From Phycisphaerae bacterium (lineage in GTDB: Bacteria; Planctomycetota; Phycisphaerae; UBA1845; PWPN01): DNA of 64,000 bases. Numbering within the stretch: the first letter of the stretch is position 1; each line of letters begins with the position of its first letter. The notes under the pieces were generated by a model that did no database searches, was not told the origin of the DNA, and saw nothing but the letters and a program-made list of their open reading frames with translations. The translations under genes were made by a program, and so were the position numbers. The stretch lies in assembly GCA_039961895.1 (NCBI GenBank), contig JABRVU010000014.1:19019-83018 (forward strand). Direction: 5' to 3'. Positions 3,870-53,988 of the stretch are shown one piece after another.

Positions 3870-3874
3870 GTTCA

Positions 3875-3914
3875 CAGAAGCCTCGAGGCGACCCCTCGGG
3901 GCTTCTGCTTTTTT
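3875..3914 (+). terminator. Rho-independent terminator downstream of the helicase-ARH-HNH operon
   Basis: CAGAAGCC...GGCTTCTG stem with an inner partially paired tcgagg/cctcgg, followed by a T-run (gcTTTTTTgg). Confidence 0.7.
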
Positions 3915-4274
3915 GGCCAGTCCTCGCGGGCATCTGCGCGCTCGCCGTCCTCGTCCCCGCTCTTCACGACCGTCGCCAGAGATCACGAGCGGCGCTCGCG
4001 GCGGCGTCTTCGCGGCCGAGATCGCTCTCTGCGGGCCTCGCCGGGGAGAGAGCGCCAGAGAGCGTTTCACAGGTAGAGATCGCGTTTAGCAGCCGAGGCG
4101 GGTTTGCTGCTAACCCGGCGTCCGCATCCTGGTTCCGATCCCAGTCGGCCCGCTGCGGGCCGCGTGGTTCACAGCCGGAAGGCAGCGCGCGATCGTCCAG
4201 GAGGCCGCCGTCGTGGCCCACGTGGCCGCCCGTGGCGGCAACGCGGACGACGGGGCTGTGGCAGAGGCGCATGA

Positions 4275-9223: not shown

Positions 9224-9237
9224 GGCTTGCTCTCCTC

Positions 9238-10728: not shown

Positions 10729-10744
10729 GGCGCCCCTCTTTCGA

Positions 10745-11140
10745 TTACTCGACCACGATCTCGCCCGCGATCATGTCCATCGCGCAGGCGAATCGGACCT
10801 TTCCGGGTTTGGTCGGTGTGAAAGTGAGCTCGACCGCCTTGTTCAGTGGCAACGGCGCGGAAATCTTGAGATCCTTGATGACGATGTCCGTCGCGCAGGT
10901 GCGCTCCACCTTGCGGGTGACAACGAGTTTCACCGGGTGTCCGGCGTGAACCTTGAACGACACGGGGACGAACCCGTCCGCGGTGACCGACAGCTCGACG
11001 ACCTGCTCGTGCCCGGTCGTGGATGCGGCGTGCTGCGAGCGATTGGGCACAGCCTCGGTACGCCCATCTTTGGCGCAAGCCGACAAGGCCAGGGAAGCTG
11101 CGCCGACAATCGCGATGAGTGTCAAGGTGGTCGTTTTCAT
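10745..11140 (-). CDS. Cupredoxin-like lipoprotein (putative periplasmic copper-binding protein)
   Basis: Lipobox LALSAC at the N-terminus. A single beta-sandwich-type domain ends in FACAMDMIAGEIVVE (Cys/Met ligand pattern). It heads the cus operon. Confidence 0.6.
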   Translation of the reverse strand: MKTTTLTLIAIVGAASLALSACAKDGRTEAVPNRSQHAASTTGHEQVVELSVTADGFVPVSFKVHAGHPVKLVVTRKVERTCATDIVIKDLKISAPLPLNKAVELTFTPTKPGKVRFACAMDMIAGEIVVE

Positions 11141-14271: not shown

Positions 14272-14680
14272 CTCGGCCACCGCGACTCAGTCGCTGCTTG
14301 TCCCACCTGGCGATTGTAGTGCGCAGTTCCCGCTCGCTCATCGGCTCGACCCCGTCCACCGACTCGGCGAAGAGGATCTGCTCCTGGATGTCGGGCGCGA
14401 GCAGCGTGAGGTCCATGAGCTGCGTCAGCCTCGCCCGGGTGAGGCCGAGGCGACGGGCGACCTCTGCGCGGTCGCGGGCGACGCCGCGGGCGATGGCGTC
14501 CTCGATCTTGTGGGCGAGCGCGAGCATCACCGCGACGCGCGCCGGGCGGCGGACTGGCTCGGGCGGCGGTTGCGGCGGCCCCTCGACGAAGGTCTTCCCG
14601 TGGCCGCGCTGGGCGCGGTGGAGCTTGCCCTCGAAGATGCGGACGCCCGGGGGCACCTCGGTCGGCTTAGTCTCGTTCAT
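14252..14680 (-). CDS. Small HTH protein co-transcribed with the serine recombinase
   Basis: Motif LGLTRARLTQLMDLTLLAPDIQEQILF is HTH-like and recurs next to recombinases. ATG at 14680 overlaps the recombinase stop (ATGA). The Arg-rich upstream part of listed ORF 14252..14869 overlaps the recombinase gene and is rejected. Confidence 0.6.
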   Translation of the reverse strand: MNETKPTEVPPGVRIFEGKLHRAQRGHGKTFVEGPPQPPPEPVRRPARVAVMLALAHKIEDAIARGVARDRAEVARRLGLTRARLTQLMDLTLLAPDIQEQILFAESVDGVEPMSERELRTTIARWDKQRLSRGGRVTGPAA

Positions 14681-16260: not shown

Positions 16261-16934
16261 CCGCGAGCCTCCTCCACCGGCTCGGGCTGCGTGCGGCGCT
16301 GCAGGCCGAAGAACAGGAACCCGTTCCACGGCGTGCCGGTGATCCGCCGCGCGAGCTGCGACAGCGTCTGGTGGCGCTCACCGTTGTACTCGAAGCCGTC
16401 GTCCAGGACCGTGACCCGGTGCTCGACGCCCTTGTGAACCCGGACGATGGTCGCGCCCGGCGGCGGCAGACGCGGGTCGCGATCGGGGTCCGGGACGGGC
16501 ATCGCCACCACGGCCACCGCCATGGGCGCAGGCGTCGCGGTCGGCTGCGGTGTCGCCCGCCAGCGCACGGGCGCCTGCGGGGCCAGTTCCTCGATCTTGG
16601 CCAGCGCGCGGGGCGACAGCCCGCCCTCGGCCAGCTCCTGAATGCGCCAGCCGACCTTCTTGCGCAGGTAGTTCTTGTTGCGGGTGCGGGTCGGCACCCC
16701 GAAGACCTCGCGGTACTTCACCACGAGCTCGCCCACCGTCATCTTCTCCAGCGCGGTGAGCTGCTCGGAGACCGTGGCCGCTGCGGCCCGGGCCTTCCTC
16801 ACCTGTTCGCTCTTGCCCATGTCGGCGCCTCCTTCGCGACGGGGGTTGATGCCGTCGTCGAGGGCCATGAGGGCGTCGGCTCTCTGTGAAGGCAAGGTAA
16901 GAATCTCTGTCAGTTCAGCGGGTTGCGGCTTCAT
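16257..16934 (-). CDS. DUF2924-family protein (recombinase-associated)
   Basis: TVGELVVKYREVFGVPTRTRNKNYLRKKVGWRIQE and the C-terminal GTPWNGFLFFGL are typical of DUF2924 proteins found directly upstream of large serine recombinases. 4-nt overlap with the recombinase start. Confidence 0.7.
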   Translation of the reverse strand: MKPQPAELTEILTLPSQRADALMALDDGINPRREGGADMGKSEQVRKARAAAATVSEQLTALEKMTVGELVVKYREVFGVPTRTRNKNYLRKKVGWRIQELAEGGLSPRALAKIEELAPQAPVRWRATPQPTATPAPMAVAVVAMPVPDPDRDPRLPPPGATIVRVHKGVEHRVTVLDDGFEYNGERHQTLSQLARRITGTPWNGFLFFGLQRRTQPEPVEEARG

Positions 16935-17091
16935 GTTCGCCCCGGACACGCTCGCGTTCCGCGAGCAGGAGATCGACCACCGCGATGGCCAGGACCTCGA
17001 CGATCACCTGCCGGCGCTGTTCGCGCGGCAGCGGCTTGGTCCCGTCGCCGACCGGCGCGGGCTTGTCGTTCGTGATCGGGGCATGCGACAC
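16915..17091 (-). CDS. Hypothetical 58-aa protein (GTG start), not in supplied track
   Basis: Hand translation gives VSHAPITNDKPAPVGDGTKPLPREQRRQVIVEVLAIAVVDLLLAERERVRGEHEAATR, overlapping the DUF2924 start. Position alone supports it. Confidence 0.25.
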   Translation of the reverse strand: MSHAPITNDKPAPVGDGTKPLPREQRRQVIVEVLAIAVVDLLLAERERVRGEHEAATR

Positions 17092-33451: not shown

Positions 33452-34216
33452 GTGACCAAGAAGAACACCGACGCCGAGGCGAAGAAGAACGGCCGCCCGC
33501 GCAAGGGCGACGGGCCGAAGGTGAACTACGACGAGCTGGACCGGATGCTCGTGCTCGGCGAGCTCGTGCCCTCTCCCGACGGCGGCGAGCCCGCCGTGAA
33601 CTACCCCTCGTACCGCGAGCTGGCGAAGCGCTATGGCGTCTGCCACAGCGTCGTCGCGGACTACGCCAAGAAGCACGACTGCCTGCGCCGGCGCGACCGC
33701 GCCCGCGAGCGGCTGCTGGCGAAGACCGAGGAGAAGCTCCTCGAGCTGCGTGCCGAGGCCATCGCGTTCTCGAAGGAGGACGCCGTCGCCACGATCGACG
33801 AGTACCTGATCGCGTTCCGCGAGGCCGTCGCCGAACGCAAGGTGCGGGTGGACAGCCCGAGCGACTTCAACATCATGCTGCGCCTCAAGGAGTTCATCCT
33901 GGGCGGCGCTGACTCCCGCCAGGAGGTCCACGCGGCGCTGTCGCTCGAGGAGCTGCAGGCCCGCCACCGCGAGATGCTCAAGGCGGTCGAGGACGCGAGC
34001 GAGGACGAGCGGGGTAGCACTCTCGGCGCCGCGAAATCGCTCGCCGCTGGTGAACAGCGGGAGGACGACAACCCCCCGCCTCCCTCCCTCGCGACTGGCC
34101 CGGGAGAACCGCACGGTCGGCCCGGGCCCGACGCGCAGCAGACACCGCCGGACGGCGACGACGAGGCCGCCGTCGCGGCCCACGTTGGCCCGAGTGGCGA
34201 CGAGGAGGAGCCGTGA
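33452..34216 (+). CDS. Terminase small subunit candidate (HTH protein)
   Basis: N-terminal basic region plus HTH (SYRELAKRYGVCHSVVADYAKKH), a coiled-coil middle and an acidic tail. It is the last gene before the terL region. The call rests on position and architecture only. Confidence 0.45.
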   Translation: MTKKNTDAEAKKNGRPRKGDGPKVNYDELDRMLVLGELVPSPDGGEPAVNYPSYRELAKRYGVCHSVVADYAKKHDCLRRRDRARERLLAKTEEKLLELRAEAIAFSKEDAVATIDEYLIAFREAVAERKVRVDSPSDFNIMLRLKEFILGGADSRQEVHAALSLEELQARHREMLKAVEDASEDERGSTLGAAKSLAAGEQREDDNPPPPSLATGPGEPHGRPGPDAQQTPPDGDDEAAVAAHVGPSGDEEEP

Positions 34217-34249
34217 AGGCCTGGCGGCCAGGCCCGATCGCCGGCGCGC

Positions 34250-34284
34250 GTACCGCCGAGAAGAGCAGAAAGCGGCGGTTCGCC
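34250..34284 (+). repeat. Repeat copy A (GTACCGCCG...AAGCGGCGGTTCGC)
   Basis: A roughly 35-bp imperfect direct repeat of 35249..35284. The cores AAGCGGCGGTTCGC at 34270-34283 and 35270-35283 are identical. Confidence 0.7.
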
Positions 34285-34347
34285 GCGCGGGCGGCTCGCA
34301 GGAATGCGGAGTTGCGGCGCGGAGTTGGCGCGCCCCTCGCGGTGGCC

Positions 34348-34359
34348 AACCGCCGCTTT
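34348..34359 (-). repeat. Inverted copy A' of the core (AACCGCCGCTTT)
   Basis: Reverse complement of AAAGCGGCGGTT at 34269-34280, read directly. Confidence 0.65.
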
Positions 34360-34587
34360 CCTCTGCGTTTCGCGGGCGGGTGGTCCCTCGGAGGTCATCA
34401 TGCCTACCTCTGCCCACAGCCGGGGGGAGGGTCGGATTTTCGTGCCGGGCAGCCCGCTGGCTCGGATGCTCGTTCCCCATCCCGAGAAGGCCAGATCCGG
34501 GAAACCGAACGGGGTGCCCCCGGACAACCGAGCGGGCGGTTCCCGGTGGCCGTGTTCGGTTTCGAGGTGCAAGTAGGTCCCCGGTAC

Positions 34588-35205
34588 TCAGCAGGGCAGG
34601 TCGCGGACGGCGCGGACGAGGTCCTCGTCGGAGGGATGGGCGTAGATGGACGTGGTCAGGATCGACTTGTGCCGTGCGAACCGCTGGGTCATCCGGATGT
34701 CCTTGGTGCGGCGGTAGAGCGTCGAGCAGGCGCTGTGCCTCAGCGAGTGGAACGAGAGGTGCCGCTCGAACCCGGCGCGCTCCTGCCAGGTCGTGAAGTT
34801 CTCCCGGAGCTGCCGGCTCGACAGGCGCTTGCCGAGGCGGCTCACGAAGACGGGCGCGTCCGGGGCGAGGCTCTCGCCCTGGTGCCGTTTCCAGGAGCGC
34901 AGCTTCTCCAGCTTCGCCCGCACGAGGTCGGGGAGCACCACCTCCTGGATCGCGGGCTCGTCGGCGCTGCGCTTGAACACCCGCAGGGTCACCCGCCGCT
35001 TGGCGCGGCCCTCGTCGTCGAAGACGTCGCCCATGTCGAGGGCGAGCAGCTCGTGCTCGCGCAGGCCCGTGCCCAGCGCGAGGCTGATGATCACGTGGTC
35101 GCGGAAGCCGTCGCGGTGCTCGCCCGTGACCTTGAGCAGGAGCTTCTGCTCGAGGTCGGTGAGCGTGCGCGGCGGCTTGGCGATGGCATCGGCGTACGCG
35201 GTCAT
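34588..35205 (-). CDS. Short tyrosine recombinase (catalytic domain only, FimB/FimE-sized)
   Basis: [12 protein letters not shown] (Arg), HSLRHSA (His-x-x-Arg), [12 protein letters not shown] (His...Tyr). 205 aa from the ATG at 35205, which is preceded by GGAGGTG. There is no room for an N-terminal core-binding domain. Confidence 0.85.
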
Positions 35206-35248
35206 GGGTTCACCTCCTGGCCGTTCGTCACGCTCCCATACAGGCGTC

Positions 35249-35284
35249 GTACCGCCGCAAAGGCAAGGCAAGCGGCGGTTCGCG
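35249..35284 (+). repeat. Repeat copy B (GTACCGCCG...AAGCGGCGGTTCGC)
   Basis: Direct repeat of copy A, located between the recombinase start (35205) and the terL start (35298). Confidence 0.7.
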
Positions 35285-35297
35285 CGGCGGTGAGGTC

Positions 35298-36734
<1,437 letters not shown>

Positions 36735-36738
36735 GAGG

Positions 36739-37458
36739 TCAATCGTCGTGGCAGGCGCCGCCGCAGCCGCAGTCCTCGCCGCGCCAAGCCTCACGGCCTT
36801 CGGCGACGAGGAACCAGGTCATGCCGAGCGCGGCCACCGGGTCTGCCCACCACCAGCCGAGGGCGGCGTTCAGAGCGATGCCGACAAGAGTGATCAAGGA
36901 CAGCCAGAAGCATGCGGTCGTCTGAAACGAATCAGCCTCCAGCGCCCGGCTTCCCAGGCGGCGGGCGGTCCTGCGCTTCGCACGCGCCAGCCACCACATC
37001 ACGGTAAGGGACAACGACGTGATGGCGATGCCGACCAAGGAAGGCTCGGGCCGCTCCCGCGTGATTAGTGCCTTGGTCGCGTCGAACGCGACGTAGGCCG
37101 CGAGCAGGAACAGCGAGAGCCCGACGAGCTTGTGCGCCCGCTGGTCCAGCCGATCGACCTCCTCGGGGTCACGCGCCCGGCGCTCGGCGCGCAGACGCCA
37201 GATCAAGATCAGGCCCGACGTCGTTTCGACAAAGCTGTCGATGCCGAAGCCGAGCAACGCCACGCTGCCGGCGGCCAGGGCGGCGGCGACGGAAACGACG
37301 CCCTCGACGATGTTCCAGCCGACGGTCAGGTACTCGAGTCGCAACCCTTGTTTCACCAGCGCCGGCCTCTCGGAACCGTGGCAGCCGGACGCGCACTGGC
37401 AATTGGAACCCTCGGCGATGCCGGTGCCGGGAGCCTCGTTGCCGCGCTCCTCAGGCAT
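36739..37458 (-). CDS. Cation-efflux (CDF-like) membrane protein with Cys-rich termini
   Basis: TM core LEYLTVGWNIVEGVVSV...GFGIDSFVET, N-terminal CQCASGCHG, C-terminal CGCGGACHDD. Its stop lies 4 nt from the convergent terL stop. Confidence 0.65.
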   Translation of the reverse strand: MPEERGNEAPGTGIAEGSNCQCASGCHGSERPALVKQGLRLEYLTVGWNIVEGVVSVAAALAAGSVALLGFGIDSFVETTSGLILIWRLRAERRARDPEEVDRLDQRAHKLVGLSLFLLAAYVAFDATKALITRERPEPSLVGIAITSLSLTVMWWLARAKRRTARRLGSRALEADSFQTTACFWLSLITLVGIALNAALGWWWADPVAALGMTWFLVAEGREAWRGEDCGCGGACHDD

Positions 37459-38362
37459 GGGCGCTCCCTTCGCAGTCCGCGGTCAAGCAGCCTTCACTCG
37501 CGACCTCGACCTGCAGCGTGACGTGGCCAATCTCGAACTTCGCCTCCAGGGTCGCCAGCACGGCCATCCGAAGCGCGGCCACATCGGCCCCGGCGCCGAC
37601 CACGAGGTGCGCCGTCAGCGCCGGCTCCCTACTTCCGAGCGACCACACATGGAGATCGTGAACGGACACGACGCCCGGCTCGGCGAGCAGCGCGCTACGG
37701 ATGCGGTCGAGAGAGAGATGCCCGGGCACGCCCTCCATCAGGATGTGCCCGGCCTCGCGCACCAGAATCCAGGTCCGGGGCAGGACCCACAGGCTGATGA
37801 GCACCGCGATGAGCGGGTCGGCGACGGTCCACCCGGTTACCTTGATGACCGCCGCCGCGATGATCACGCCGACGGAGCCGAGCATGTCGCTCCAGACCTC
37901 GAGGTAGGCGCCCTTCACGTTCAGGCTCTCCCCGCTGCCGGACTTCAGCAGCAGCATCGAGACCAGGTTCACGACCAGCCCGCCGACCGCGATGACGAGC
38001 ATGCCGGTCGATGCAATCGGCGACGGCGTGCGGAACCTGCCGACGGCCTCCCAGAAGATGTAGCCGGCCACCACGAAGAGGAGCACTCCGTTGATGAGCG
38101 CCCCGAGCGCCTCCATGCGCGCGTAGCCGAACGTGCGCTTGGCGTCCGGCGGCCTGCGAGAAAGCCGAACCGCCACGAGCGAGATCACCAACGCGAACAC
38201 GTCCGTCGCCATGTGCGCCGCGTCCGAGATAAGGGCCAAGCTGTTCGTGAGCAGCCCGCCCACGACCTCGGCCACCAGGAAACCGGCGGTCAGACCGAAC
38301 GCCCACCAGAGGGGGCGCTCGTGCTTCACCTCCGCGCGGTGATGTTCGTGTTCTCCGCTCAT
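37451..38362 (-). CDS. czcD: CzcD/ZitB-type cation diffusion facilitator (Zn/Co/Cd efflux)
   Basis: His-rich N-terminus MSGEHEHH, signature LTNSLALISDAAHMATD, six-TM pattern and a C-terminal cytoplasmic domain (VHDLHVWSL). Confidence 0.85.
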   Translation of the reverse strand: MSGEHEHHRAEVKHERPLWWAFGLTAGFLVAEVVGGLLTNSLALISDAAHMATDVFALVISLVAVRLSRRPPDAKRTFGYARMEALGALINGVLLFVVAGYIFWEAVGRFRTPSPIASTGMLVIAVGGLVVNLVSMLLLKSGSGESLNVKGAYLEVWSDMLGSVGVIIAAAVIKVTGWTVADPLIAVLISLWVLPRTWILVREAGHILMEGVPGHLSLDRIRSALLAEPGVVSVHDLHVWSLGSREPALTAHLVVGAGADVAALRMAVLATLEAKFEIGHVTLQVEVASEGCLTADCEGSAHA

Positions 38363-38400
38363 GCGTACCACCTTCCTCCGTTCGCTCCGGGACGGCTCGC

Positions 38401-38889
38401 TCACCGCCCGTCGGAGCGTTCCGGAGCCGGGGCAGTTGTCCTCGCCACGTTCTCACCGCAGTCGAAGGTGCCGTCCACGGCCGTGCAGCCGCTGTCGTGG
38501 ACCGCCAGCATGAGCCGGGAGCTGCCCGCCGGCACCGCCTTGAGTTTCGTGCGAAACGAGGCGCCGTACCAGCCGTGCTGCTTGGGGCTCGTGCTCCGCT
38601 TCAGGGGCAGGCTTTCGGCCAAGAGGTCCTGCCCTTGCCGGTCCTTGATCGCCACGTCGACGTGCTCGTCCCGCACGCAGTACCCGTGGCGATGCTCTAC
38701 CTTGCCGTAGACGACGAGCTCGCCCTCGTCCTCGTCGGCACGCACGTAGGTGATGCGGTGGAAATCGCTCTCCGCGACGCTCACCACGAGCTTCGAGTCG
38801 TTGGACACGTAGGGGAGCGTCGTCGCGCATCCCCCCAGCGCCACGGTCACCGCCGCCGCACCGAGCAAACGAAATTTCAGTAGATCCAT
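38401..38889 (-). CDS. Lipoprotein of unknown function
   Basis: MDLLKFRLLGAAAVTVALGGC lipobox. The listed 344-aa ORF extends upstream through Arg-rich sequence overlapping the ICMT gene and is rejected. Confidence 0.55.
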   Translation of the reverse strand: MDLLKFRLLGAAAVTVALGGCATTLPYVSNDSKLVVSVAESDFHRITYVRADEDEGELVVYGKVEHRHGYCVRDEHVDVAIKDRQGQDLLAESLPLKRSTSPKQHGWYGASFRTKLKAVPAGSSRLMLAVHDSGCTAVDGTFDCGENVARTTAPAPERSDGR

Positions 38890-39515
38890 GGAATGTACCT
38901 CCAGCTTCTGCCGGCGTAGGCGCGATATGCCTCGCCGTGCATATTCACCAGGTGCTCCTCCTCGGCGCGCACCTGGAGCTCCATCACGACAAAGAACAGG
39001 ACCGCGAAGCTGGCGACCAGCGTCGTCGGCCAGATGATCCACAGGCCCAGATTGACCAGATGCAGACCGAGGTACGTGGGATTGCGAACGCGGCGATAGA
39101 TGCCGCCGGTCACGAGGTCCGTGCGGCGGTCGACATCGATGCCGACCCGCCACGCGGAGCCCATCGTCGCCTGCGCGGCCGCGCACACGGCAAGCCCCGC
39201 GACACCAAGGACGGCCCCGGCCACGTCGAACCACCAGGGGTCGAGCGCGGCCACCCGCACCAAGGGCGGCCAGGCGTCGGGTGCCCCCGCGTGAAGCCCG
39301 ATGACGAGGACGACCAGGCCGGTCATGACTCGCAAGAGTCTCGCGAAGTACCGCTGCACCGGCGTCGTCGCCATGTGGATCACCTCGGGGTCGACGCCTG
39401 TACGACGCCGGTCGCGGTGTCGCTTCAGTCGCCACAGTGCCAGGTAGCCGACGAAGAGCGACACCACCTCAGCGGCTTCGACGAGACGGTGCGTGGTCAT
39501 GGCCGGCCCCATCAC
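38877..39515 (-). CDS. Isoprenylcysteine carboxyl methyltransferase (ICMT/PEMT) family membrane protein (CzcN-like)
   Basis: GGIYRRVRNPTYLGL...VRAEEEHL...YRAY family signature with multiple TM helices. Confidence 0.75.
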   Translation of the reverse strand: MMGPAMTTHRLVEAAEVVSLFVGYLALWRLKRHRDRRRTGVDPEVIHMATTPVQRYFARLLRVMTGLVVLVIGLHAGAPDAWPPLVRVAALDPWWFDVAGAVLGVAGLAVCAAAQATMGSAWRVGIDVDRRTDLVTGGIYRRVRNPTYLGLHLVNLGLWIIWPTTLVASFAVLFFVVMELQVRAEEEHLVNMHGEAYRAYAGRSWRYIPWIY

Positions 39516-39841
39516 ACCGCACCCGCACCGCGCTCGCCGGTGCGGATCTTCACGACGTCCGCGACGTCGTAGAGGAAGATCTTTCCGTCGCCCGCGAGCC
39601 CGGTGCGGGCGGCTCGGGCGATGGTCTCGATCACCTTCTCAACGAGCGCATCCGGAACGACGACCTCGAGCTTGGCCATCTTCGCCTCGCCGGTGAGGTC
39701 GGGAGTCTCGCCGCCGGGGTCGTTACGGTTGAAGCCGTAGACCATCGACATGGTGATGCCCGGCAGGTGCGGCAGCTCCTGGAGGCTGTCGATGACCTTG
39801 TCGAGCATGTTGCGCTTCACGATCGCTTTGATCTCCTTCAT
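39512..39841 (-). CDS. P-II (GlnB-like) family protein
   Basis: MKEIKAIVKR...GITMSMVYGF...LEVVVPDALVEKVIETIARAARTGLAGDGKIFLYDV...IRTGE tracks GlnB end to end. Confidence 0.8.
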   Translation of the reverse strand: MKEIKAIVKRNMLDKVIDSLQELPHLPGITMSMVYGFNRNDPGGETPDLTGEAKMAKLEVVVPDALVEKVIETIARAARTGLAGDGKIFLYDVADVVKIRTGERGAGAV

Positions 39842-39850
39842 GGCCGTCTC

Positions 39851-42800
39851 CTACAGCTCGACGCCGGCCTTGGCCGGTGCGAAGCGGGTTGCAAACAGTG
39901 AGTAGATGGTGGGCAACACGATGAGCGTCAGCAGCGTCGAGGTGACGAGGCCGCCCATGACCACCACCGCGAGGGGCTTCTGGATGTCCGCCCCGGAGCC
40001 GGTCGCGTAGAGCATCGGCAGGTGGCCGATGAAGCTCGTGAGCGCGGTCATCAGCAGTGGCCGGAAGCGGAGGTCACAACCCTTGGTGACCGTGTCCGCC
40101 ACCGACTCTCCCTGCTCGCGGAGCTGACGGAAGAAGGCGACGAGGACCACGCCGTTCTGGACCGCGATGCCGAGCAGCACGATGAAGGCGACCGCCGCGG
40201 ACACCGAGACCGGCATCCTGAACGCCACCACCGCGATGACCCCGCCGACGAGCGCGAACGGCAGGTTGAGCAAGACCAGCAAGGCGTTCCAGATCGATCC
40301 GAGCGCCATGTAGAGCAGCACCATGATCAGCAGGAGCGCGATCGGCACCACGATGGCGAGCTGACGCATGGCCCGTTGCTGGTTCTCGAACTGCCCGCCG
40401 TACTCGACGTAGTAGCCGGACGGCAGCTCCTTCACGAGCGGCGCGAGCTTCTGCTGAACCTCGCCCACGAAGCCACCGAGGTCGCGGCCGCGGATGTTCG
40501 CCTCGGCCACCACCCGCCGCATGCCGTTCTCGCGGCTCACCTGCGCGGGCGCCTCCACAACCTGGAAGTCGGCAATCTGCGCGAGCGGCACGCGCTCGCC
40601 GCCGGGGGCCGTGACCAGCAACCGCTCGAGCTCCGGGATGTCGCCGCGGGCCGACTCCGGGAACCGCACGACCACCGCAAACCGGCGCTGCTCCTCGATC
40701 AGGGTCGTGGCCTTCTTGCCCGCGACAGCCGTCTCGATGACGGCGTTGACGTCCCCGATCTTGATGCCGTGCCGCGCCACGGCCTCCCGGTCGATGACCA
40801 CGTCGAGCTGGGACATGCCCGACACCTGCTCGACCTTCACATCCCGCGCTCCCTCGATGCCGCCCAGGGTCGCGGCCGCGCGGTCCGCGAACTGCTTGAG
40901 CACGGCGAGGTCGGGCCCGAAGACCTTGATCGCGAGGTCACTCTTCACGCCCGAGATGAGCTCGTTCACGCGCAGCGCGATGGGCTGCGAGAAGGAGAAG
41001 CGCAGACCCGGGATCTCGGCGAGGTCCTTCTGGATGGCCTCGACCAGCTCGGCCTTGTCGCGCCCGGTGCCCCATTGCTTGCGGGGCTTGAGCATGATGA
41101 AGACATCAGTCTGCTCCGGGCCCATCGGGTCCTCGGAGATCTCGGCCCGCCCGGTCTTGCTCACCACCGTTTCGACCTCGGGGAACTTCCGCAGGCGCTG
41201 CTCCATGAACGTCGCGACCTTGACCGAGCCGTCGAGCGAGGCGTTCGGGTGCCGCACCACGTTGACGGCAATCGATCCCTCATCAAGATCGGGCATGAAC
41301 GTGGTGCCCATGAACGGGAGGAGCGCCAGGGAAGCAACGAGCACGCCGCCCGAGATTCCGAGGGTCACCGCTGGGCGCCGCACGGCGCGACTGAGTAATC
41401 GCACGTAGGCCCTGTGGAAGCGGCGGATGAAGCCGAACTCCTTCTCCGGGACCTGCTTGAGGAAGACATCGGAGAGGACCGGGATGACGGTCAACGCCAC
41501 GACGAGCGACACCAGGAGAGCGATGAGCATCGTCGCGGCGAGCGGGGCGAACATCTTCCCCTCGATGCCCTGGAGCGTGAACAGCGGCACCAGGATGATC
41601 GCGATGATGAGCACCGAGAAGGCGACCGGCCTCGCGACCTCGACGAGAGCCTCGGCCACCACCCGGCGCTTGTGTTCCTTCTCTGTCCGGTGCGCCAGAT
41701 GCCGCCGGATGTTCTCGACCACCACGATCGACGCATCGACCACCATGCCGACGGAGAACGCGAGGCCGCCCAGGCTCATCAGGTTCGAGCTGATGCCCGC
41801 CGAGCCCATGAAGATGAAGCTCACCAGGAAGGTCAGCGGCAGTGAGAACACGACGATGAGCGCGGTCCGGAACTCGGCGACAAAGAGGAAGAGGATGAGA
41901 ATGACGAAGATGCCACCCTCGAGCAGCGCGTCGACCACGGTCTTGATGCACGCCTCGATGAGCGAGGTCCGGTCGTAGAAGACGTTGAGCTTCACCCCCT
42001 CGGGGAGCGTGCCCTGGATCTTGCCAATCGACTCCTTGACCCGGCTCACGACGTCCCCTGAGTTCGCGCCCTTGAGCATGATGATCATGCCCGCCACCGC
42101 CTCGCCCTCGCCGTCGCGCGAGACGGCGCCCTGTCTGGGCTCGGCGCCGATGACGACGTCGGCGACGTCCCTCAGGTAGACCGGCGAGCCGTCCTTGGAC
42201 TTGAGGACGATGCGCTCGATGTCGGGGATGTCCTTCATCAGGCCCACGCCGCGCATGTAGAGCTGCTCCCAGCCCCGCACCACGACGCCGCCGCCCGCGT
42301 TGGCGTTCCCCTGCTCGACCGCCTCGACGACCTCGTTGACCGTGAGGTCGTACTTGAGGAGCTTCTCGGGCGAGATCAGCACCTGGTACTGCTTGACCTC
42401 GCCGCCGAAGCTGTTGACCTCGTTGACCCCTGGTATGGGCTTGAGCAGCGGCGCCACGATCCAGTCCTGGACCGTGCGCAGCTCCATCGCGCTCTTGCCT
42501 TCTCCCTCCAGCGTGTACTGGAGGATTTCACCAAGACCCGTGGAAATCGGGCCGAGCTCGGGCTCGACGCCAGGGGGGAGCTCCTCGCGCGCCATGCTGA
42601 GGCGCTCGAAGACGACTTGCCGGGTCCAGTAGGTGTCGACGCCGTCCTCGAAGATGATGACCACCTGCGACAGCCCGGCCTTGGAGAGCGAGCGTACTTG
42701 CTTCACGCGCGGCAGGCCTCGCATGACCTGCTCGATCGGGTAGCTGACGCGCTGCTCCACGTCGACGGCGGCCAGCCCCGGAGCCTTCGACAGGATCATG

Positions 42801-42934
42801 ACCTGGGTGTTGGTGACGTCGGGGAATGCATCGATCGGCAGGTGCAGCCACGCCATCACGCCCGCCGCAATGAGGACCGCGGTGGCGAGGAGCACGAGGA
42901 GACGGTTCTTTAGCAAAAAGGTGATCTGTTTCAT
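39851..42934 (-). CDS. czcA: CzcA-type heavy-metal RND efflux pump
   Basis: LPIDAFPDVTNTQVMILSKAPGLAAVDVEQRVSYPIE...GLSQVVIIFEDGVDTYWTRQVVFERL follows the CzcA N-terminus. 1027 aa, 12-TM layout. Confidence 0.9.
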   Translation of the reverse strand: MKQITFLLKNRLLVLLATAVLIAAGVMAWLHLPIDAFPDVTNTQVMILSKAPGLAAVDVEQRVSYPIEQVMRGLPRVKQVRSLSKAGLSQVVIIFEDGVDTYWTRQVVFERLSMAREELPPGVEPELGPISTGLGEILQYTLEGEGKSAMELRTVQDWIVAPLLKPIPGVNEVNSFGGEVKQYQVLISPEKLLKYDLTVNEVVEAVEQGNANAGGGVVVRGWEQLYMRGVGLMKDIPDIERIVLKSKDGSPVYLRDVADVVIGAEPRQGAVSRDGEGEAVAGMIIMLKGANSGDVVSRVKESIGKIQGTLPEGVKLNVFYDRTSLIEACIKTVVDALLEGGIFVILILFLFVAEFRTALIVVFSLPLTFLVSFIFMGSAGISSNLMSLGGLAFSVGMVVDASIVVVENIRRHLAHRTEKEHKRRVVAEALVEVARPVAFSVLIIAIILVPLFTLQGIEGKMFAPLAATMLIALLVSLVVALTVIPVLSDVFLKQVPEKEFGFIRRFHRAYVRLLSRAVRRPAVTLGISGGVLVASLALLPFMGTTFMPDLDEGSIAVNVVRHPNASLDGSVKVATFMEQRLRKFPEVETVVSKTGRAEISEDPMGPEQTDVFIMLKPRKQWGTGRDKAELVEAIQKDLAEIPGLRFSFSQPIALRVNELISGVKSDLAIKVFGPDLAVLKQFADRAAATLGGIEGARDVKVEQVSGMSQLDVVIDREAVARHGIKIGDVNAVIETAVAGKKATTLIEEQRRFAVVVRFPESARGDIPELERLLVTAPGGERVPLAQIADFQVVEAPAQVSRENGMRRVVAEANIRGRDLGGFVGEVQQKLAPLVKELPSGYYVEYGGQFENQQRAMRQLAIVVPIALLLIMVLLYMALGSIWNALLVLLNLPFALVGGVIAVVAFRMPVSVSAAVAFIVLLGIAVQNGVVLVAFFRQLREQGESVADTVTKGCDLRFRPLLMTALTSFIGHLPMLYATGSGADIQKPLAVVVMGGLVTSTLLTLIVLPTIYSLFATRFAPAKAGVEL

Positions 42935-42949
42935 GGCGATCTCCCTTCT

Positions 42950-44272
42950 TCAGTCCGCGCATCCCGCGCCCATCTTCGAGCGCAGGACGTCGGACTTCAT
43001 GAGGAAGGCGCCTTCGGCCACGACGACCTGCGACGGCTCGACGCCCTTCTTGATTTCGGCCCAGCCGGCCCACCGCCGTCCCACGACGACGGGGCGCCGG
43101 ACGTAGTAGTCGCCCTGGTAGTGGACGAATACGAACGAGCGGCCCTCGTCCTCGAGGACGGATTGCCTCGGCAGGGCCATGGTCTCCTCCGTGCCCGGCA
43201 GGAAGACCTTGACCGCCGCGAACATCCCCGCGAGCAGGCGGCCGTCCTCGTTCTTGACCTGAACTCGGACCTTGACCGTCCGCGAGGACTCGTCCATTGC
43301 CGGGCTGACCAGATCGACCGTTCCGGCGAACTCCTCGCCCGGGTAGGCCTTGACCGAGATCGTCGCCGCGAGCTTCTGGGCGGCCTGGCCCTTCTTCACC
43401 GCGGCGATGTCCCGCTCGTACAGATCGGCCCAAACCCAGACCGCCGTGTTGTCGCCCACGGTCAGGAGCGCTTCCTCCGTCTTGGCCACCTCGCCGGACA
43501 CCGCGTGCATCACCAGCACCGTGCCGTCCATCGGCGCTCGCAGGACGATGCGCCCGCCCTCGGTCCCTCCCGTACCGAGGCGGTTGAGCTTGCTACGCGC
43601 GCCCGTCGCGCGGATCTCGGCCGCCTCCAGTTCCTGCTTCGCCTGGAGGTACTCCTTTTCGGAGGAGATGTTCTCCTTTCGCAGCTCGGACACTCGCTCG
43701 AAGTTGCGGCGCGCGAGGGTCAGCATGCCTTGCGCTTCGAGGTAGGCGGCTTGCCCTTCGCCGACCGCGACGCTCTCGATCTCGAGGAGCGGCTGCCCCT
43801 TCTTGACCTGATCTCCGAGCGCGACGTGGACCGTCTTGATGATGCCCTCGACCTGCGTGCTCACGTGGCCGACCCGTCGCTCGTCGAAGCGGACCTCGCC
43901 GGTGAGCGCAATCGGCACGGCGACCTTCTGCCGTTCGGCCTTGGTAGTGGTGAAGAGGCCACCCTGCGTCAGGGAAGCGGGAGCACGAACGAAGCCCGTC
44001 TCGTAGCGGCACTCGTCGCACTCGTAGGTCTTCTTCTTGTGCTCGCAGGTGAGACCGACCAGCTCGGGGATCGGCCGGTCCAAATCCGAGGGCTCCTTGC
44101 CCTCGGGGCCCTCGCCGTGCTCGGCATGGCCTCCTTCGCCCTCGTGGGACGCATGGTCGTCGGCTTTCGCCGCCGGAACAGGCGTACCTTCGGCCGGGTT
44201 CTTCTTGTTGCAGGACGCGCTCGCGGCCACCAGGGCCAACGAGAAGACTAGGATGAAGATGCGGCTGTTCAT
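42950..44272 (-). CDS. czcB: RND periplasmic adaptor (CzcB-like) with His-rich N-terminal region
   Basis: HASHEGEGGHAEHGEG, a CEHKKKTYECDEC motif, then membrane-fusion-protein domains. Confidence 0.8.
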   Translation of the reverse strand: MNSRIFILVFSLALVAASASCNKKNPAEGTPVPAAKADDHASHEGEGGHAEHGEGPEGKEPSDLDRPIPELVGLTCEHKKKTYECDECRYETGFVRAPASLTQGGLFTTTKAERQKVAVPIALTGEVRFDERRVGHVSTQVEGIIKTVHVALGDQVKKGQPLLEIESVAVGEGQAAYLEAQGMLTLARRNFERVSELRKENISSEKEYLQAKQELEAAEIRATGARSKLNRLGTGGTEGGRIVLRAPMDGTVLVMHAVSGEVAKTEEALLTVGDNTAVWVWADLYERDIAAVKKGQAAQKLAATISVKAYPGEEFAGTVDLVSPAMDESSRTVKVRVQVKNEDGRLLAGMFAAVKVFLPGTEETMALPRQSVLEDEGRSFVFVHYQGDYYVRRPVVVGRRWAGWAEIKKGVEPSQVVVAEGAFLMKSDVLRSKMGAGCAD

Positions 44273-45573
44273 TTGGGCTCCTCTCCGACGAGCGCGCCGA
44301 GGCGGCTGCAGTCGATCTGGGCTTGCGCGAGCGCGCTCAGGTAGAGGCGGCGCGAATCAAGCAAAGTGCGGCGGGCATCGATGACCTCGAGCAGGCTCGC
44401 CTCGCCGAGTTGGTACGTCTTCTCCATGGTTGACGCCGCTGTCTCGGAGCGCGGCACCACGTTGTTCCTGAACCGTGTCGCGGTCGCGACCGACGCTTGG
44501 CAAGCCGCCTGGGCGTCGACCACGGAGGCCTGAAGCTCCAGGCCGGTGGCCTCGGCATGTTTGCGGCTGGCGGCCAGTCTGGCTTCCGCCTGGGCGATGC
44601 GACCGGAGTTCCAGTTCCAGAGCGGCAGGTCGACCGTGAGCCCGACACCGTAGGCCCGCCGGTCCAGCTCGTAGCTCGTGAAGCCCGTAAGACCGAACGC
44701 GGGCACGCGAGCCAGCTTCTCGGTGTCGAGCTCGGCCTCGAAGAACCGCGTCCGCGCCCTGGCGACTGCAAGGGACGGATGGGCGATCCGCGCCTTGGAC
44801 AGGGCCGCGTCGCGATCGAGCGCCACCGGGAGACTATCGAGATCGGCGGTCAGCACCAGCGTCTGTCCCGCGGGTACGCCGAGCCATAGCGCGAGCTCGG
44901 CGCGACGGGCCTTGAGCGAGACGCGCGCCGCCTCGAGCTCGCTCGTGACCTTCTCGAGCTCGATCTCGACCCGGGTCGCCTCGACGGGGCGGACCTCGCC
45001 CTTCTCCACTCGCTTCCTCACGGTTTCGACGAGCGCCAAGGTCTGCGCCTCGAGCGCCTCGAGGGATGCGACCCTGGCCTGTTCGTAGGCGAGGTTCCAG
45101 AACAGGGTCCGGAGCTGGAGCAGGACGTCCCGGCGCAGCGCCTTGGTTTCGGCCAGGGCGACGTCGACCTCTGCCTCGGCCGCGCTGATGCGCGACCCGC
45201 GCTGCGCGATCCAACCCAAGGGGATGGTCACGGCGAGGCCCCACTCGACACGGGAGGCGCCACCGGTCCTGGCGACGCCCTGGCCGACGTTGCCTTCCAG
45301 GGTCGGGTTGGGCACGGCGCCAGCGGCGTCGACGCCGCCCCGCGCGGCGTCGACCTGGAACTTGCCCGCGGAGAGCCGCGGGTGCTGATCGACCAGGCGG
45401 ACGACGTCAGGCCAGGTCAGGTTGACGGTTGCGGACGAACCGTCCGCGATTTCGGCCGGCGGAACCGAATCGGGCTGACCCGGGCCGGCCATCGCCGGGC
45501 TCGCCGAGAGGAGAACTACAAGTAGGAGCTGACCGCGCCTCCAGCGGGAGGCGCGTTTGAGAACGCAATGCAT
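44269..45573 (-). CDS. czcC: TolC-family outer-membrane efflux protein (CzcC-like)
   Basis: Signal peptide (LLLVVLLSASPAMA), TolC-type repeats, and a 4-nt overlap with czcB. Start taken at MHCVLK. Confidence 0.75.
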   Translation of the reverse strand: MHCVLKRASRWRRGQLLLVVLLSASPAMAGPGQPDSVPPAEIADGSSATVNLTWPDVVRLVDQHPRLSAGKFQVDAARGGVDAAGAVPNPTLEGNVGQGVARTGGASRVEWGLAVTIPLGWIAQRGSRISAAEAEVDVALAETKALRRDVLLQLRTLFWNLAYEQARVASLEALEAQTLALVETVRKRVEKGEVRPVEATRVEIELEKVTSELEAARVSLKARRAELALWLGVPAGQTLVLTADLDSLPVALDRDAALSKARIAHPSLAVARARTRFFEAELDTEKLARVPAFGLTGFTSYELDRRAYGVGLTVDLPLWNWNSGRIAQAEARLAASRKHAEATGLELQASVVDAQAACQASVATATRFRNNVVPRSETAASTMEKTYQLGEASLLEVIDARRTLLDSRRLYLSALAQAQIDCSRLGALVGEEPK

Positions 45574-45689
45574 CTTCGAATACCTGCCTTTCGATGACGC
45601 CCGCGAGGGACGTCCGGGTTGCGCCAAGCCATCGGCTCGCGTTGCACGGGGGCACGCGAGCGCAACGGCGCCTTCTCAAAGGGAAGGCG

Positions 45690-46022
45690 TTAGGCGCGGG
45701 GCGGGTGGAAGATGCGGAAGTGGACGTCCTTCGGATGAAGGTCGTCGTACACGCTCAGATTCAGCTCATCCGAGTCGGGAGGAGCTGGCGCGAGCTGCTG
45801 CGGGACAAACAGGGTCGTGGCCGCGTGACCCGGACAGCAGGTACACGCGCAGGCCGGGCCGCAGGGATGGCCCTTGTCGTCGGGATCGGGACAGGGCGAG
45901 CCCTCGGTGTGGCTGATCTGATCCCCGCTCGCCCAGGATCGCAGCACCTCGCCCGCGGTCGCCGAAACCATGCCGGCGACGAAGACAAAGAGGACGAGAA
46001 CGGCGACACGCTGGAGTTTCAT
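45690..46022 (-). CDS. Small secreted Cys-rich protein (CzcI-position, putative metal-binding)
   Basis: Signal/anchor MKLQRVAVLVLFVFVAGMVSA, then CPDPDDKGHPCGPACACTCCPGH. It lies between arsR and czcC. Confidence 0.5.
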   Translation of the reverse strand: MKLQRVAVLVLFVFVAGMVSATAGEVLRSWASGDQISHTEGSPCPDPDDKGHPCGPACACTCCPGHAATTLFVPQQLAPAPPDSDELNLSVYDDLHPKDVHFRIFHPPRA

Positions 46023-46432
46023 GCGCGCGCCCCCTGTTCTGCCAGGTGGCGTGCGCAGTCGTCGAGAAGAGAGACGATGAACGGCGAGTGGAGCGAGTAG
46101 TGGACGAGCTTGCCCTCGGACCGCGAGCGCACGATGCGGAGATCCTTGAGCTGGTGGAGCTGGTGCGAGGTCGCCGAGACCGACAACCCGACCGCCTCGG
46201 AGATCTCACAGACGCACATCTCGCCGCTGGCGAGCGCCCTGATCAGCCGCACGCGGGTCGGGTGCGCGAGCATCTTGAAGGTGTCGGCGATCTCCTGCGC
46301 CTGCTCACTGGGCGGAAGCGCGGCCCTTCCGCGACGCACGCGCTCCTGGTCCACGGAGAAGACACCACAATGCTCGTCCGCACCGGCCTTGCCGTGCGTT
46401 CTTGCGAGTGCGGCTGTCTTCCTTCGTGCCAT
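46019..46432 (-). CDS. ArsR/SmtB-family metalloregulator
   Basis: FKMLAHPTRVRLIRAL...EMCVCEISEAVGLSVSATSHQLHQLK is the ArsR winged HTH, with the CVC metal site. Confidence 0.85.
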   Translation of the reverse strand: MARRKTAALARTHGKAGADEHCGVFSVDQERVRRGRAALPPSEQAQEIADTFKMLAHPTRVRLIRALASGEMCVCEISEAVGLSVSATSHQLHQLKDLRIVRSRSEGKLVHYSLHSPFIVSLLDDCARHLAEQGARA

Positions 46433-46616
46433 GAGCGATTCATTACCTCACTTGAGCAAGTATAGAAACGTTCTGCCTGCTTGTCAACCCATTCCAGTCC
46501 AACCCGTCGATTTGGCCAGGGTTTCAACCGCGGCGGGCCTGGGAATATTCCCGCCTCTGTCCCCGCTTCGACCGCCCGCGGCTTTGCCTCTCCGGAACCA
46601 CTCAGGGAGGCGACCC

Positions 46617-46787
46617 ATGAAGTCCTGGTACGAGAGCAAGACGATCTGGTTGGGCCTGGCGACTATCGCGACCGCGGTGGTGTCGGCGGTGGCGGGCGGC
46701 GCGGGCTGGCAGCAGGCAATCCTCGCCGCCGTCGGCGCAGCGAACATCTTCCTGCGCACGCAGACCGACAAGCCGGTGGGGAAGTAG
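46617..46787 (+). CDS. Small membrane protein (56 aa)
   Basis: GGGAGG lies 6 nt before the ATG. MKSWYESKTIWLGLATIATAVVSAVAGGAGWQQAILAAVGAANIF has two hydrophobic helices. Confidence 0.45.
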   Translation: MKSWYESKTIWLGLATIATAVVSAVAGGAGWQQAILAAVGAANIFLRTQTDKPVGK

Positions 46788-46928
46788 CTGTCCCCGTCGT
46801 CGCGTGACGGTGCTTTGCACTCACGGAGGCGGGGCGGTGGACCCAGGCCGGTTCACGATCCCGTGGGCTCCCAGACCCGGCGACAAGGGTTGACCGGCCC
46901 CGCCTCCACTTGCTCGGGAGAGCCCGCG

Positions 46929-47134
46929 ATGGAGCGCACGCTGCACGTCTTCGTCATCCCCAACGGCCAGCCGCCGGCCGGGCCGCCCAAGCCCGCCCGC
47001 GCGCTCACGGTCGCGGCCCCGAGCCTCGACGGGCTGCGCGAGGCCGCCCGCGAGAAGCTCGCGGCCGAGGGCTACCGCGTCCGCTCGCTGTCGTTCGGTC
47101 CGAAGGGCCTCGTCGCCTACGTCGAGGCCGCGCG

Positions 47135-47138
<4 letters not shown>
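46929..47138 (+). CDS. Hypothetical small protein upstream of portal
   Basis: ATGA overlap with the portal start. Composition is plausible. Confidence 0.4.
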
Positions 47139-48950
<1,812 letters not shown>

Positions 48951-48964
<14 letters not shown>

Positions 48965-50624: not shown

Positions 50625-50823
50625 GTGTCCGAAGGCGCGACCGACAAGAGCACCGCGAAGGCCCAGCCGGACCTGAAGTTCCGGCTCGCGGCCGTCCGCG
50701 ATCGGTGCGCCGTCCTGCGAGGCCGCAAGCCCGCCGCCAAGGACGACGGCACCGCCTGGCCGCGCGACCTCAACGCCACCGGCCAAGATGGCACCTGGGG
50801 CAACGACCCCGTGGAGGTCCGGG

Positions 50824-50831
<8 letters not shown>
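50625..50831 (+). CDS. Hypothetical small protein
   Basis: GTG start preceded by GGAGGTG. Overlaps the next gene by 8 nt. Confidence 0.35.

Positions 50832-53984
<3,153 letters not shown>

Positions 53985-53988
<4 letters not shown>

Follow-up and report, generated by a model that had tools for sequence, protein, structure and literature searches.

What is a gene for a tyrosine recombinase, accompanied by several copies of a short motif, doing between the two terminase genes of a prophage? The question is raised by positions 34217-35297 of a 64,000-nucleotide stretch of a Phycisphaerae bacterium assembly (contig JABRVU010000014.1; G+C 68%), to which we refer throughout as the window. Here, a terS-like open reading frame (ORF; 33452-34216, plus strand, 254 aa in the ORF list) is separated from terL, the gene for the terminase large subunit (35298-36734, plus strand; Pfam Terminase_6N and Terminase_6C, and PHROG terminase families), by 1081 bp. 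This gap holds a minus-strand recombinase gene, rec (34588-35205; 205 aa counted from its ATG), and 371 bp of non-coding DNA, as a first-pass annotation of the window had described. That annotation viewed the interval either as a recombinase-operated switch or as a parasitic mini-element. We find instead that the recombinase gene and its motifs are a fixed, conserved part of a large myxobacterial prophage family, and we tentatively suggest that the protein, Rec, is a Cre/lox-like recombinase acting on a site of its own.

The arrangement is conserved in every relative with a similar terL. We examined synteny in 86 loci that contain a near-complete rec (loci are referred to by L numbers), 55 of which have a terL homologue, defined as at least 55% identical. 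All 55 keep the same order, with a terS-like gene convergent with rec, a non-coding module, rec on the opposite strand and a terL divergent from rec, the gaps between rec and terL being mostly 78-108 bp. Similarly, when the search was started from terL, rec was in the same place on each of the eight viral contigs with enough flank and a terL at least 60% identical. We found no terL relative at 55% identity or above that was without rec; the relatives below 35% identity are without it. Pairwise identities of Rec and TerL are, moreover, correlated (r = 0.81). The idea of a parasitic mini-element is thus not borne out, and comparison of related prophages reveals no absence polymorphism of the cassette. 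Nor is there any sign of rearrangement: the 25 independent assemblies with an identical or 99%-identical Rec have a single configuration, and a rec-less, inverted, deleted or otherwise rearranged form was found neither among these, nor in ~60 related loci, nor in six contigs that share the spacer of the site described below. The very phage of the window is carried in, for example, the runs SRR28719891, SRR24283745 and SRR25844856 and in JGI 3300021969. In contrast, a few genes upstream, the insertion of an HNH/NUMOD4 endonuclease gene is polymorphic, being present in a 99% relative (L114). Given this contrast, the fixed arrangement argues that the cassette has long belonged to the packaging module and has been inherited vertically.

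The product of rec has an intact active site, and is predicted to be an active tyrosine recombinase. Its only Pfam match is PF00589 (E = 2.5e-26), which spans residues 37-215 of the 227-aa ORF that starts at a TTG, or ~15-193 of the 205-aa protein; no further domain was found, and only ~14 residues precede the match, so the protein does not have the two-domain form with an N-terminal core-binding clamp. The expectation of a catalytic-domain-only recombinase of 205 aa was therefore correct. The residues R49, K78, H153, R156, H179 and Y188, which make up the R, K, H-x-x-R, H, Y signature, do not vary among 23 sequences that are 68-100% identical. Of the curated models, those of XerA, XerC and XerD score highest, at ~69-82 bits (XerA and XerC ~81-82, top score 81.9), against cut-offs of 220-335. 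The models for FimB/FimE-type invertases (NCBIfam PRK09871 and PRK09870) reach 43.7 and 34.8 bits where the cut-offs are 222 and 221, and those for integron integrases reach 36 and 27 bits where they are 265 and 435. Matches in the PDB are to XerA (5hxy), XerD (1a0p) and XerH (5jjv), with E values of 1e-7 to 1e-4 and over the catalytic domain only. Thus Rec appears Xer-like in sequence and Fim-like by size alone; its earlier assignment to the Fim class holds for the size (~200 aa, catalytic domain only) but not for the family. Judged by the Fim, Xer and integron thresholds and by the missing clamp domain, Rec is a member of no curated family. It has more than 1200 homologues; among the matches listed, most have 204-205 aa and are 60-99% identical. 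They come mostly from Myxococcota genomes and metagenome-assembled genomes, including Myxococcus stipitatus (with a prophage at ~2.006-2.019 Mb of CP102770) and Haliangium ochraceum, and their sources are mostly Myxococcota prophages in soil, sludge and sediment metagenomes. No close homologue was found in cultured phages.

The core AAGCGGCGGTTCGC occurs at 34270-34283 and, in direct orientation, at 35270-35283, and an inverted copy with one mismatch lies at 34345-34358. These three matches are the only ones in 64 kb, where 0.10 are expected, and none of 100 shuffles reached three. A repeat search confirms that both direct cores sit in longer imperfect repeats of ~35 bp, which form two direct families at offsets of 1000 and 999 bp. 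The spacing of exactly 1000 bp is true of the window but incidental, since close relatives have 990-1000 bp. No overlooked gene contains the repeats, because the long plus-strand ORF across the gap (34213-35301) is an antisense shadow of rec and because indels among relatives in the non-coding stretch are not multiples of three.

Alignments of the gaps between terS and rec, which yielded 35 non-redundant modules, define a conserved module of ~345 bp beside rec, with two inward-facing 13-bp arms (consensus AAGCGGCnnTTCG) in its left part. These inner arms are 77-78 bp apart, start to start, in nearly all lineages, over a range of Rec identity of 57-100%. In each genome, exactly one inner arm has an outer partner across a spacer. 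When palindromes were required to have at least 9/13 arm complementarity, there was one per genome and the spacer was 8 bp in 28 of 28, which is a 13-8-13 geometry and is consistent with the suggestion that the cores are recombinase-binding arms. The arms are near-perfect in several lineages, matching at up to 12/13 positions in L007, L059 and L081; the L007 site reads CGAATTGCCGCTT-TGATGGAG-AAGCGGCAATTGG.

In the window, the sole complete lox-like site is U1 (34249-34282), which consists of an outer arm CGTACCGCCGAGA (34249-34261), an 8-bp spacer AGAGCAGA (34262-34269) and an inner arm AAGCGGCGGTTCG (34270-34282), with arms that match at 9/13 positions. The spacer and inner arm of U1 recur in six metagenome contigs with differing wider flanks. 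U2 (34346-34358, CCAACCGCCGCTT) is a lone inverted arm, whose would-be partner across 8 bp matches at only 6/13 positions. The stretch between the inner arms (34283-34345) is conserved in length and contains two GGAGTT(G/A)CG-like copies, with GGAGTT at 34308-34313 and 34321-34326; the alignments also show conservation of GGAGTTACG. In the Myxococcus-type lineages represented by L025 and L007, the roles are swapped, such that U2 is the complete site and U1 the lone arm. On the other side of rec, U3 (35248-35282) consists of an arm CGTACCGCCGCAA, a 9-bp spacer AGGCAAGGC and a second arm AAGCGGCGGTTCG. Its arms match at 10/13 positions, and the right one stops 15 nt short of the terL ATG. An arm-like copy at this place is recognisable in 15 of 26 non-redundant lineages; the other 11 carry the recombinase without it, an outcome that the first-pass annotation had itself named as counting against its reading. 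The variable bases of U3 agree with U1 and U2 of the same genome slightly better than do permuted pairs (p ~0.04, with no phylogenetic correction), and the covariation of variable arm bases with Rec or TerS is not separable from shared ancestry. One further arm-like 11-mer, ACCCGCCGCTT (one mismatch), occurs on the plus strand inside rec (34991-35001), where it encodes a conserved AKRR and is probably a coincidence of coding. Intrinsic terminators were considered as a general explanation of the arms and rejected: a scan flags hairpins at U1 (minus strand) and U2 (plus strand), but the upstream half is not conserved in L019 and L025. A palindrome in L009 that contains AAGCGGCG is a genuine terminator and is unrelated to the arms.

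Could Rec use these copies to switch read-through from terS to terL, by deleting the cassette between U1 and U3 or by flipping it between U2 and U3? The presence of direct and inverted arm copies on both sides of rec, and the position of rec antisense within the packaging operon, would suit such a model. However, strand exchange by tyrosine recombinases takes place across the spacer and requires that the spacers of both sites match, and the three spacers differ in sequence and length: U1 has 8 bp, AGAGCAGA, U2 has 8 bp, TCCTCTGC (GCAGAGGA on the other strand), and U3 has 9 bp, AGGCAAGGC. Exchange between U1, U2 and U3 is therefore not expected. In addition, U2 has no partner arm, and U3 is missing in Myxococcus-type lineages and in ~40% of lineages overall. 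Moreover, the orientation of rec is identical in 55 of 55 loci, one configuration is seen in the 25 assemblies with identical or 99%-identical Rec, and all six contigs with the U1 spacer run into a U1-type flank rather than into the flank of terL. Neither the predicted deletion nor the predicted inversion is thus borne out. Since assemblies miss rare variants, some room is left for a low-frequency event, which we regard as extremely improbable. We conclude that the feature is not a phase switch, whichever protein binds the arms.

U3 overlaps a region (35235-35266, minus strand) in which conserved blocks suggest a promoter for rec. Read on the rec strand, AGGCAA (35261-35266) is TTGCCT and CCCATACAGGC (35235-35245) contains TGTATG; TTGCCT lies 18 nt upstream of TGTATG, beyond which come a short leader and a ribosome-binding site, GGAGG. 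The CATACAGGC/CATGCACGC and GGCAAG/GCAAG blocks are kept in almost all gaps between rec and terL, even in contexts that contain rec only. The arms of the U3 palindrome flank the -35-like hexamer, which falls within the U3 spacer.

The remainder of the module lies between U2 and the end of rec. The G-block GGGGGGAGGGTCGGATTTTCGTG (34422-34444, plus strand; also written GGGGGGAGGGTCGGATTTTCG) is the most conserved non-coding element of the 35 modules, and in relatives a small dyad, for example TCCGAcTTTCGGA, is found 3' of its G-run. It is followed by iterons (34501-34563), of which GAAACCGAAC (34501-34510) and GACAACCGAGC (34523-34533) are direct and GTTCGGTTTC (34554-34563) is inverted; the 10-bp inverted repeat noted previously, formed by GAAACCGAAC and GTTCGGTTTC, is exact. 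Taken alone, the iteron 10-mer is not rarer in the window than chance predicts (seven matches with at most one mismatch, 3.65 expected), and its significance comes from its conservation in relatives. The direct and inverted iterons change together between lineages, giving ACCGAAC, AGTGACC, ATTGAAC and TGTCCAC types. A near-invariant tail, TGCAAGTAGGT (34568-34578, plus strand), closes the module. An RNA element was considered for this region and rejected: Rfam gave no meaningful match on the gap, its folding z-scores (-1.57 and +0.10) are not significant, and the RNAalifold consensus of the 35 modules recovers only the iteron pair. Because the direct copies change along with the inverted ones, which base pairing cannot explain, the iterons are better understood as protein-binding DNA sites than as an RNA stem. 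At the other end of the gap, the tight hairpin reported just 3' of the terS-like stop is present (GGCCTGG-CGG-CCAGGCC, 34218-34234, plus strand), without a T-run; it is only partly kept in relatives at 92-93%, which have GCCCATG... or GCCCTGG..CCAGCCC there.

The G-block, iterons and tail probably constitute a terminase recognition site and/or a late-gene control region, since they move with terS. In three loci (L062, L063 and L068), the tail lies upstream of the terS-like start codon, at a distance of ~65 nt in L063 and ~14 nt in L068, and terS abuts rec with a gap of 25 bp. The protein encoded by the terS-like gene has an N-terminal helix-turn-helix, long helices and a disordered acidic tail. 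Its Pfam match to HTH_50 is weak (E = 0.001, below the cut-off), it falls in PHROG 32085, to which no function is assigned, and it matched no TerS model of Pfam or NCBIfam. The best PDB match of its AlphaFold (AF2) model, to a Bacillus cereus prophage protein (2ao9), is non-significant (E = 0.59). We therefore treat the 254-aa protein as a putative small subunit, named from its position.

Parts of the cassette and relatives of Rec also occur in other settings. On two contigs of 4.2-4.4 kb (L013 and L017), a block that runs from U1 to rec and takes in the G-block region lies between an AbiEi/AbiEii toxin-antitoxin pair and another integrase gene, and terS and terL are unrecognisable; this block could be a remnant or a satellite-like element that carries the packaging region of a helper phage. 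Homology to the cassettes of L012, L013 and L017 starts exactly at the outer arm of U1. The gap between rec and terL is a hot spot for cargo in L009, in L012 and in the L058 group (L051, L058, L060, L064-L067), where the inserted genes include a 1.6-kb ORF (L009), an RHS-repeat toxin with RhuM (L012) and a DUF2924/ribbon-helix-helix (RHH) protein (L060). We considered an integron-like capture at U3 for this cargo and set it aside, as the break in homology just past GGCAAG is what a promoter boundary would give; an inspection by eye only found no attC-like repeats in the cargo of some relatives. Within the resident rec gene of L052, at the H-x-L-R-H active-site codons, there is a 4.1-kb mobile element (3859-7947) with 25-bp terminal inverted repeats (TTATGCCGACCTCCCGGTAATGCCG), a paralogue of Rec (~62% identity) and a second, full-length tyrosine recombinase. 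The same element is found in L050, L056 and L061, and its empty site is seen in L089 at 3481/3482. Proteins of the Rec family thus also occur in a mobile element that targets the rec gene of phages. The terminal and sub-terminal repeats of this element contain a similar (T/A)AATGCCG motif.

What, then, does the cassette do? The explanation that we prefer, at a probability of about 45%, is that rec and its ~345-bp cis module form a conserved packaging-region pair, in which Rec acts on its own site in a Cre/lox-like manner. Rec would bind the 13-bp arms, and U1 would synapse only with an identical U1, carried by the opposite end of a chromosome with terminal redundancy, by a sister or dimer copy, or by a co-infecting genome. 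Rec would then circularise terminally redundant DNA, or interconvert monomers and multimers, beside the packaging site. U2 would serve as an accessory arm in fixed phase, 77 bp from the inner arm of U1, and U3, in the lineages that have it, would most likely be an autoregulatory operator over the -35-like element of rec. The promoter-like region in front of rec would drive its expression, in the opposite sense to the late genes. Such an orientation suits a gene that works early or constitutively, and it obliges late transcripts that reach terL to traverse rec in antisense. The assignment of the arms to Rec, which we likewise regard as tentative, draws on the 13-8-13 geometry and on the location of U3 over the promoter-like region of rec, in addition to the persistence of the U1-to-rec block beside AbiE genes in L013 and L017 and the similar (T/A)AATGCCG repeats around a Rec paralogue.

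A number of observations weigh against this explanation. The link between Rec and the arms comes from sequence, and the TerS-like protein or another DNA-binding protein could bind them. Rec is without the N-terminal core-binding domain by which Cre, FLP and Xer clamp their sites, and its AlphaFold model, with a predicted local distance difference test (pLDDT) score of 60, is too uncertain to be used in a fold search. In U1, the outer arm matches at only 9/13 positions, and its three spacer-proximal bases are consistently non-symmetric in the lineage of the window. U3 is absent from 11 of 26 lineages, including the Myxococcus group, in which unrelated palindromes are found instead, and a scan of the region with the Escherichia coli consensus found no sigma-70 promoter, such that the promoter call follows from conservation alone. 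In L062, L063 and L068, the arms are 111-112 bp apart and the complete module, with its arms, immediately precedes terS, which separates it from rec; the module therefore travels with terS. Finally, it is an assumption that a phage that integrates needs cyclisation or the handling of multimers.

A rival view is that the arms, G-block and iterons together are a cos or pac site and/or a late control region bound by the helix-turn-helix TerS-like protein or another phage regulator. Rec would then be a separate neighbour gene with another target, and the copy at its promoter would let the packaging or late regulator shut rec off. The movement of the module with terS in three loci is expected on these terms, the two inverted arms at a fixed 77-78 bp around a conserved centre are reminiscent of a bent nucleoprotein site, the iterons co-vary in the manner of sites for a protein, the lone arm and U3 are incomplete as recombination sites, and Rec has no core-binding domain. 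Yet each lineage has an exact 13-8-13 palindrome, which is the hallmark of a simple site for a tyrosine recombinase, and to our knowledge the sites of small terminases are not 13-8-13 palindromes. The U1-to-rec cassette persists beside AbiE genes where terS and terL are unrecognisable on the contigs, and the 254-aa protein is itself only a putative small terminase. We therefore consider a terminase or regulator as the binder of the arms unlikely, although it is the alternative to which we give most weight. By comparison, it is distinctly improbable that the cassette is, or was, a selfish mobile unit extending from U1 to U3, which entered the ancestor of the clade by site-specific recombination, left the repeats as att-like scars and was from then on passed down vertically. 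In favour of such an origin, the outer arm of U1 is the exact point at which homology sets in among four different contexts, the cassette of L012, L013 and L017 lies apart from any recognisable terS and terL, Rec paralogues reside in a bona fide 4.1-kb mobile element, and U1 and U3 share both arms in the lineage of the window. Against this, we found no empty site in any terL relative, Rec co-diverges with TerL, U3 is missing in 11 of 26 lineages, and the right boundary falls at the -35-like element, at which conservation would be lost in any event; moreover, L012 has its inserted cargo (RHS toxin, RhuM) on the other side of rec, so that terL may merely be displaced there.

Rec might also take part in packaging itself, by fusing monomer circles at U1 into a multimeric substrate or by nicking or otherwise processing the adjacent site. 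Such a role would be analogous to that of the HNH proteins that assist HK97-type terminases, and it would agree with the strict linkage of rec to this terL clade and module and with the retention of module and rec together in the small, possibly satellite-like elements of L013 and L017. Tyrosine recombinase genes are also found in the structural modules of Tyroviruses, Perkons and the Lactococcus 949 group, beside a short inverted-repeat site and with a role that is unexplained (PMC9703825). On the other hand, rec is read in the direction opposite to the late operon, from a promoter-like region of its own, unlike a late packaging factor, and no contig terminates at the G-block, although contig ends are uninformative as a proxy for cos. 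We hold a direct role as a packaging factor to be very unlikely. The broader proposition, that Rec and its lox-like site are an obligatory part of DNA packaging in this phage clade, with Rec fusing or cutting genome copies at U1 and so making the terminase substrate at the adjacent G-block/iteron site, seems to us only slightly less so.

Comparison with known systems is instructive for the Cre/lox-like explanation. Cre/loxP of phage P1 and FLP/FRT of the yeast 2-micron plasmid each consist of one recombinase gene by one 34-bp site with 13-bp inverted arms and an asymmetric 8-bp spacer, as does the pair described here; FRT has an extra third arm. P1, too, is a temperate phage with its site near packaging genes: loxP is close to pac and so falls in the terminal redundancy, and Cre acts there to circularise and resolve the P1 genome. 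In contrast, Cre has 343 aa and Rec 205 aa without the N-terminal core-binding domain, and the sequence relationship between them is limited to the shared catalytic fold. Cre/loxP also has neither an extra lone arm at a fixed 77-78 bp nor, as in some lineages here, a copy in the promoter region, and P1 lives as a plasmid, whereas the phage in the window integrates into the chromosome with a serine recombinase. The layout of U1, U2 and U3 may be likened to TnpI/IRS of Tn4430 and Tn5401, a resolution system of transposons. In this system, associated with the names of Vanhooff/Hallet and Baum, a single tyrosine recombinase reportedly uses a core inverted-repeat site with extra repeats on one side, the sites lying at its own promoter and permitting autoregulation. 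TnpI differs in being a two-domain protein of ~284 aa, in having accessory repeats that abut the core rather than lying 77 bp and ~1 kb away, and in belonging to a transposon rather than to a phage packaging module. By analogy with the simple Cre/FLP-type systems, the minimal catalytic-domain-only Rec and its site would work in the same way, with a protein from outside the curated families.

Other systems resemble this one in single aspects. FimB and FimE share the size of ~200 aa, the catalytic domain without other domains and inverted copies of a short motif nearby, but the cassette has no invertible segment (one orientation in 55 of 55), its spacers differ, and the Fim models score below their cut-offs and below Xer. 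XerC/XerD-dif, XerA and XerH give the best catalytic-domain matches and act on identical sites in two copies of a genome; dif, however, is 11-6-11 rather than 13-8-13, and Rec is phage-borne, has no core-binding domain or FtsK-type control, and scores far below the Xer cut-offs. With respect to arrangement, Tyrovirus gp50 is comparable, a tyrosine recombinase encoded among packaging and structural genes with an inverted-repeat site beside its gene, although that site is 11-6-11, co-transcription with structural genes has been suggested where rec is antisense, and the hosts are Bacillota (PMC9703825). A precedent relevant to U3 is YopR (MrpR), the SPbeta repressor, a phage protein of tyrosine-recombinase fold that binds repeated DNA sites; it keeps three of seven catalytic residues and showed no recombinase activity in vitro (bioRxiv 10.1101/2022.10.21.513154), whereas Rec keeps all catalytic residues that we checked. 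The module may also be compared with lambda cosB (R3-I1-R2-R1) and gpNu1, in which bidirectional repeated elements lie by the small-terminase gene, two of them at a fixed distance over a conserved centre; there is no homology. The cultured phage with the closest TerL is Brevibacillus phage Emery (KC595516.1; L112, 36-3158), at 37% identity. Its gp1, a tyrosine 'integrase' of 290 aa, is encoded immediately beside gp2 and the terminase gp3 at the genome end; we considered gp1 as evidence for a link with Rec and set it aside, as it is a two-domain protein with a generic identity of 26%.

The wider prophage indicates that Rec is not the enzyme of integration. At its left end (14677-17003) is a large serine recombinase (14677-16377; Resolvase, Recombinase and zinc ribbon domains) with a DUF2924 protein beside it, which is probably the real integrase of the prophage. 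The phage in the window therefore already has an integrase, and rec lies in mid-genome. We also rejected Rec as the prophage integrase on the basis of its position in relatives. An integrase gene with an adjacent attP comes to lie at the prophage end, since the site is split in lysogens, whereas the terS-like gene, module, rec and terL are contiguous within chromosomal contigs of 1.3-10 Mb (L001, L020, L025, L030, L037 and L059). That U1-U2 is the attP of the serine integrase was rejected likewise, because the site is intact inside integrated prophages. The serine recombinase pair is followed by an M78-peptidase/helix-turn-helix immunity pair, then by a helicase, a DnaG-type primase, a PD-(D/E)XK nuclease, DUF7768 and a RusA-like resolvase, and then by the terS-like gene, rec, terL, ~10 kb of metal-efflux cargo, the portal gene (46808-48964) and further structural genes. 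A 264-aa protein upstream of terS that looked sigma-like by eye was dropped for want of Pfam or PDB support.

Several differences from relatives were noted along the prophage. The HNH/NUMOD4 homing-endonuclease gene of L114 (~3963-4546, window orientation) lies between the DUF7768 and RusA-like genes and would fall between 32299 and 32328 of the window, which is without it. The cargo at 36735-46800, between the terL stop (36734) and the portal gene, consists of two cation-diffusion-facilitator genes, a P-II protein and an RND CzcCBA-type efflux system; in L001 and L002, terL runs directly into the portal region, without metal cargo. A second RND/CusB/OEP set (4275-10770) is outside the prophage. 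Further along, a single ORF of 1104 aa (50677-53988) combines a D12-class N6-adenine methyltransferase with an XkdF-type phage serine protease domain. Five independent contigs with a Rec identical to that of the window (L118-L122), one of which recurs in 18 samples, all stop ~360-590 nt into terL, and this shared end suggests a strain-level mosaic boundary.

The Rec family is large (>1200 homologues), widespread and uncharacterised. If Rec does act on its own 34-bp, 13-8-13 site without a core-binding domain, the pair would be the smallest Cre-like system known. It would be of mechanistic interest for how a lone catalytic domain clamps and synapses DNA, could provide a compact genome-engineering tool for high-GC bacteria, and would offer a concrete and testable example for the recombinase genes of unexplained role that other phages carry within their structural modules. 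Should the arms turn out to be sites for the terminase or a regulator, they would make up an unusually well-defined packaging or late-control site in a phage group that has no model system. Recombinase-assisted packaging, if true, would explain the recurrence of such genes in the structural modules of unrelated phages.

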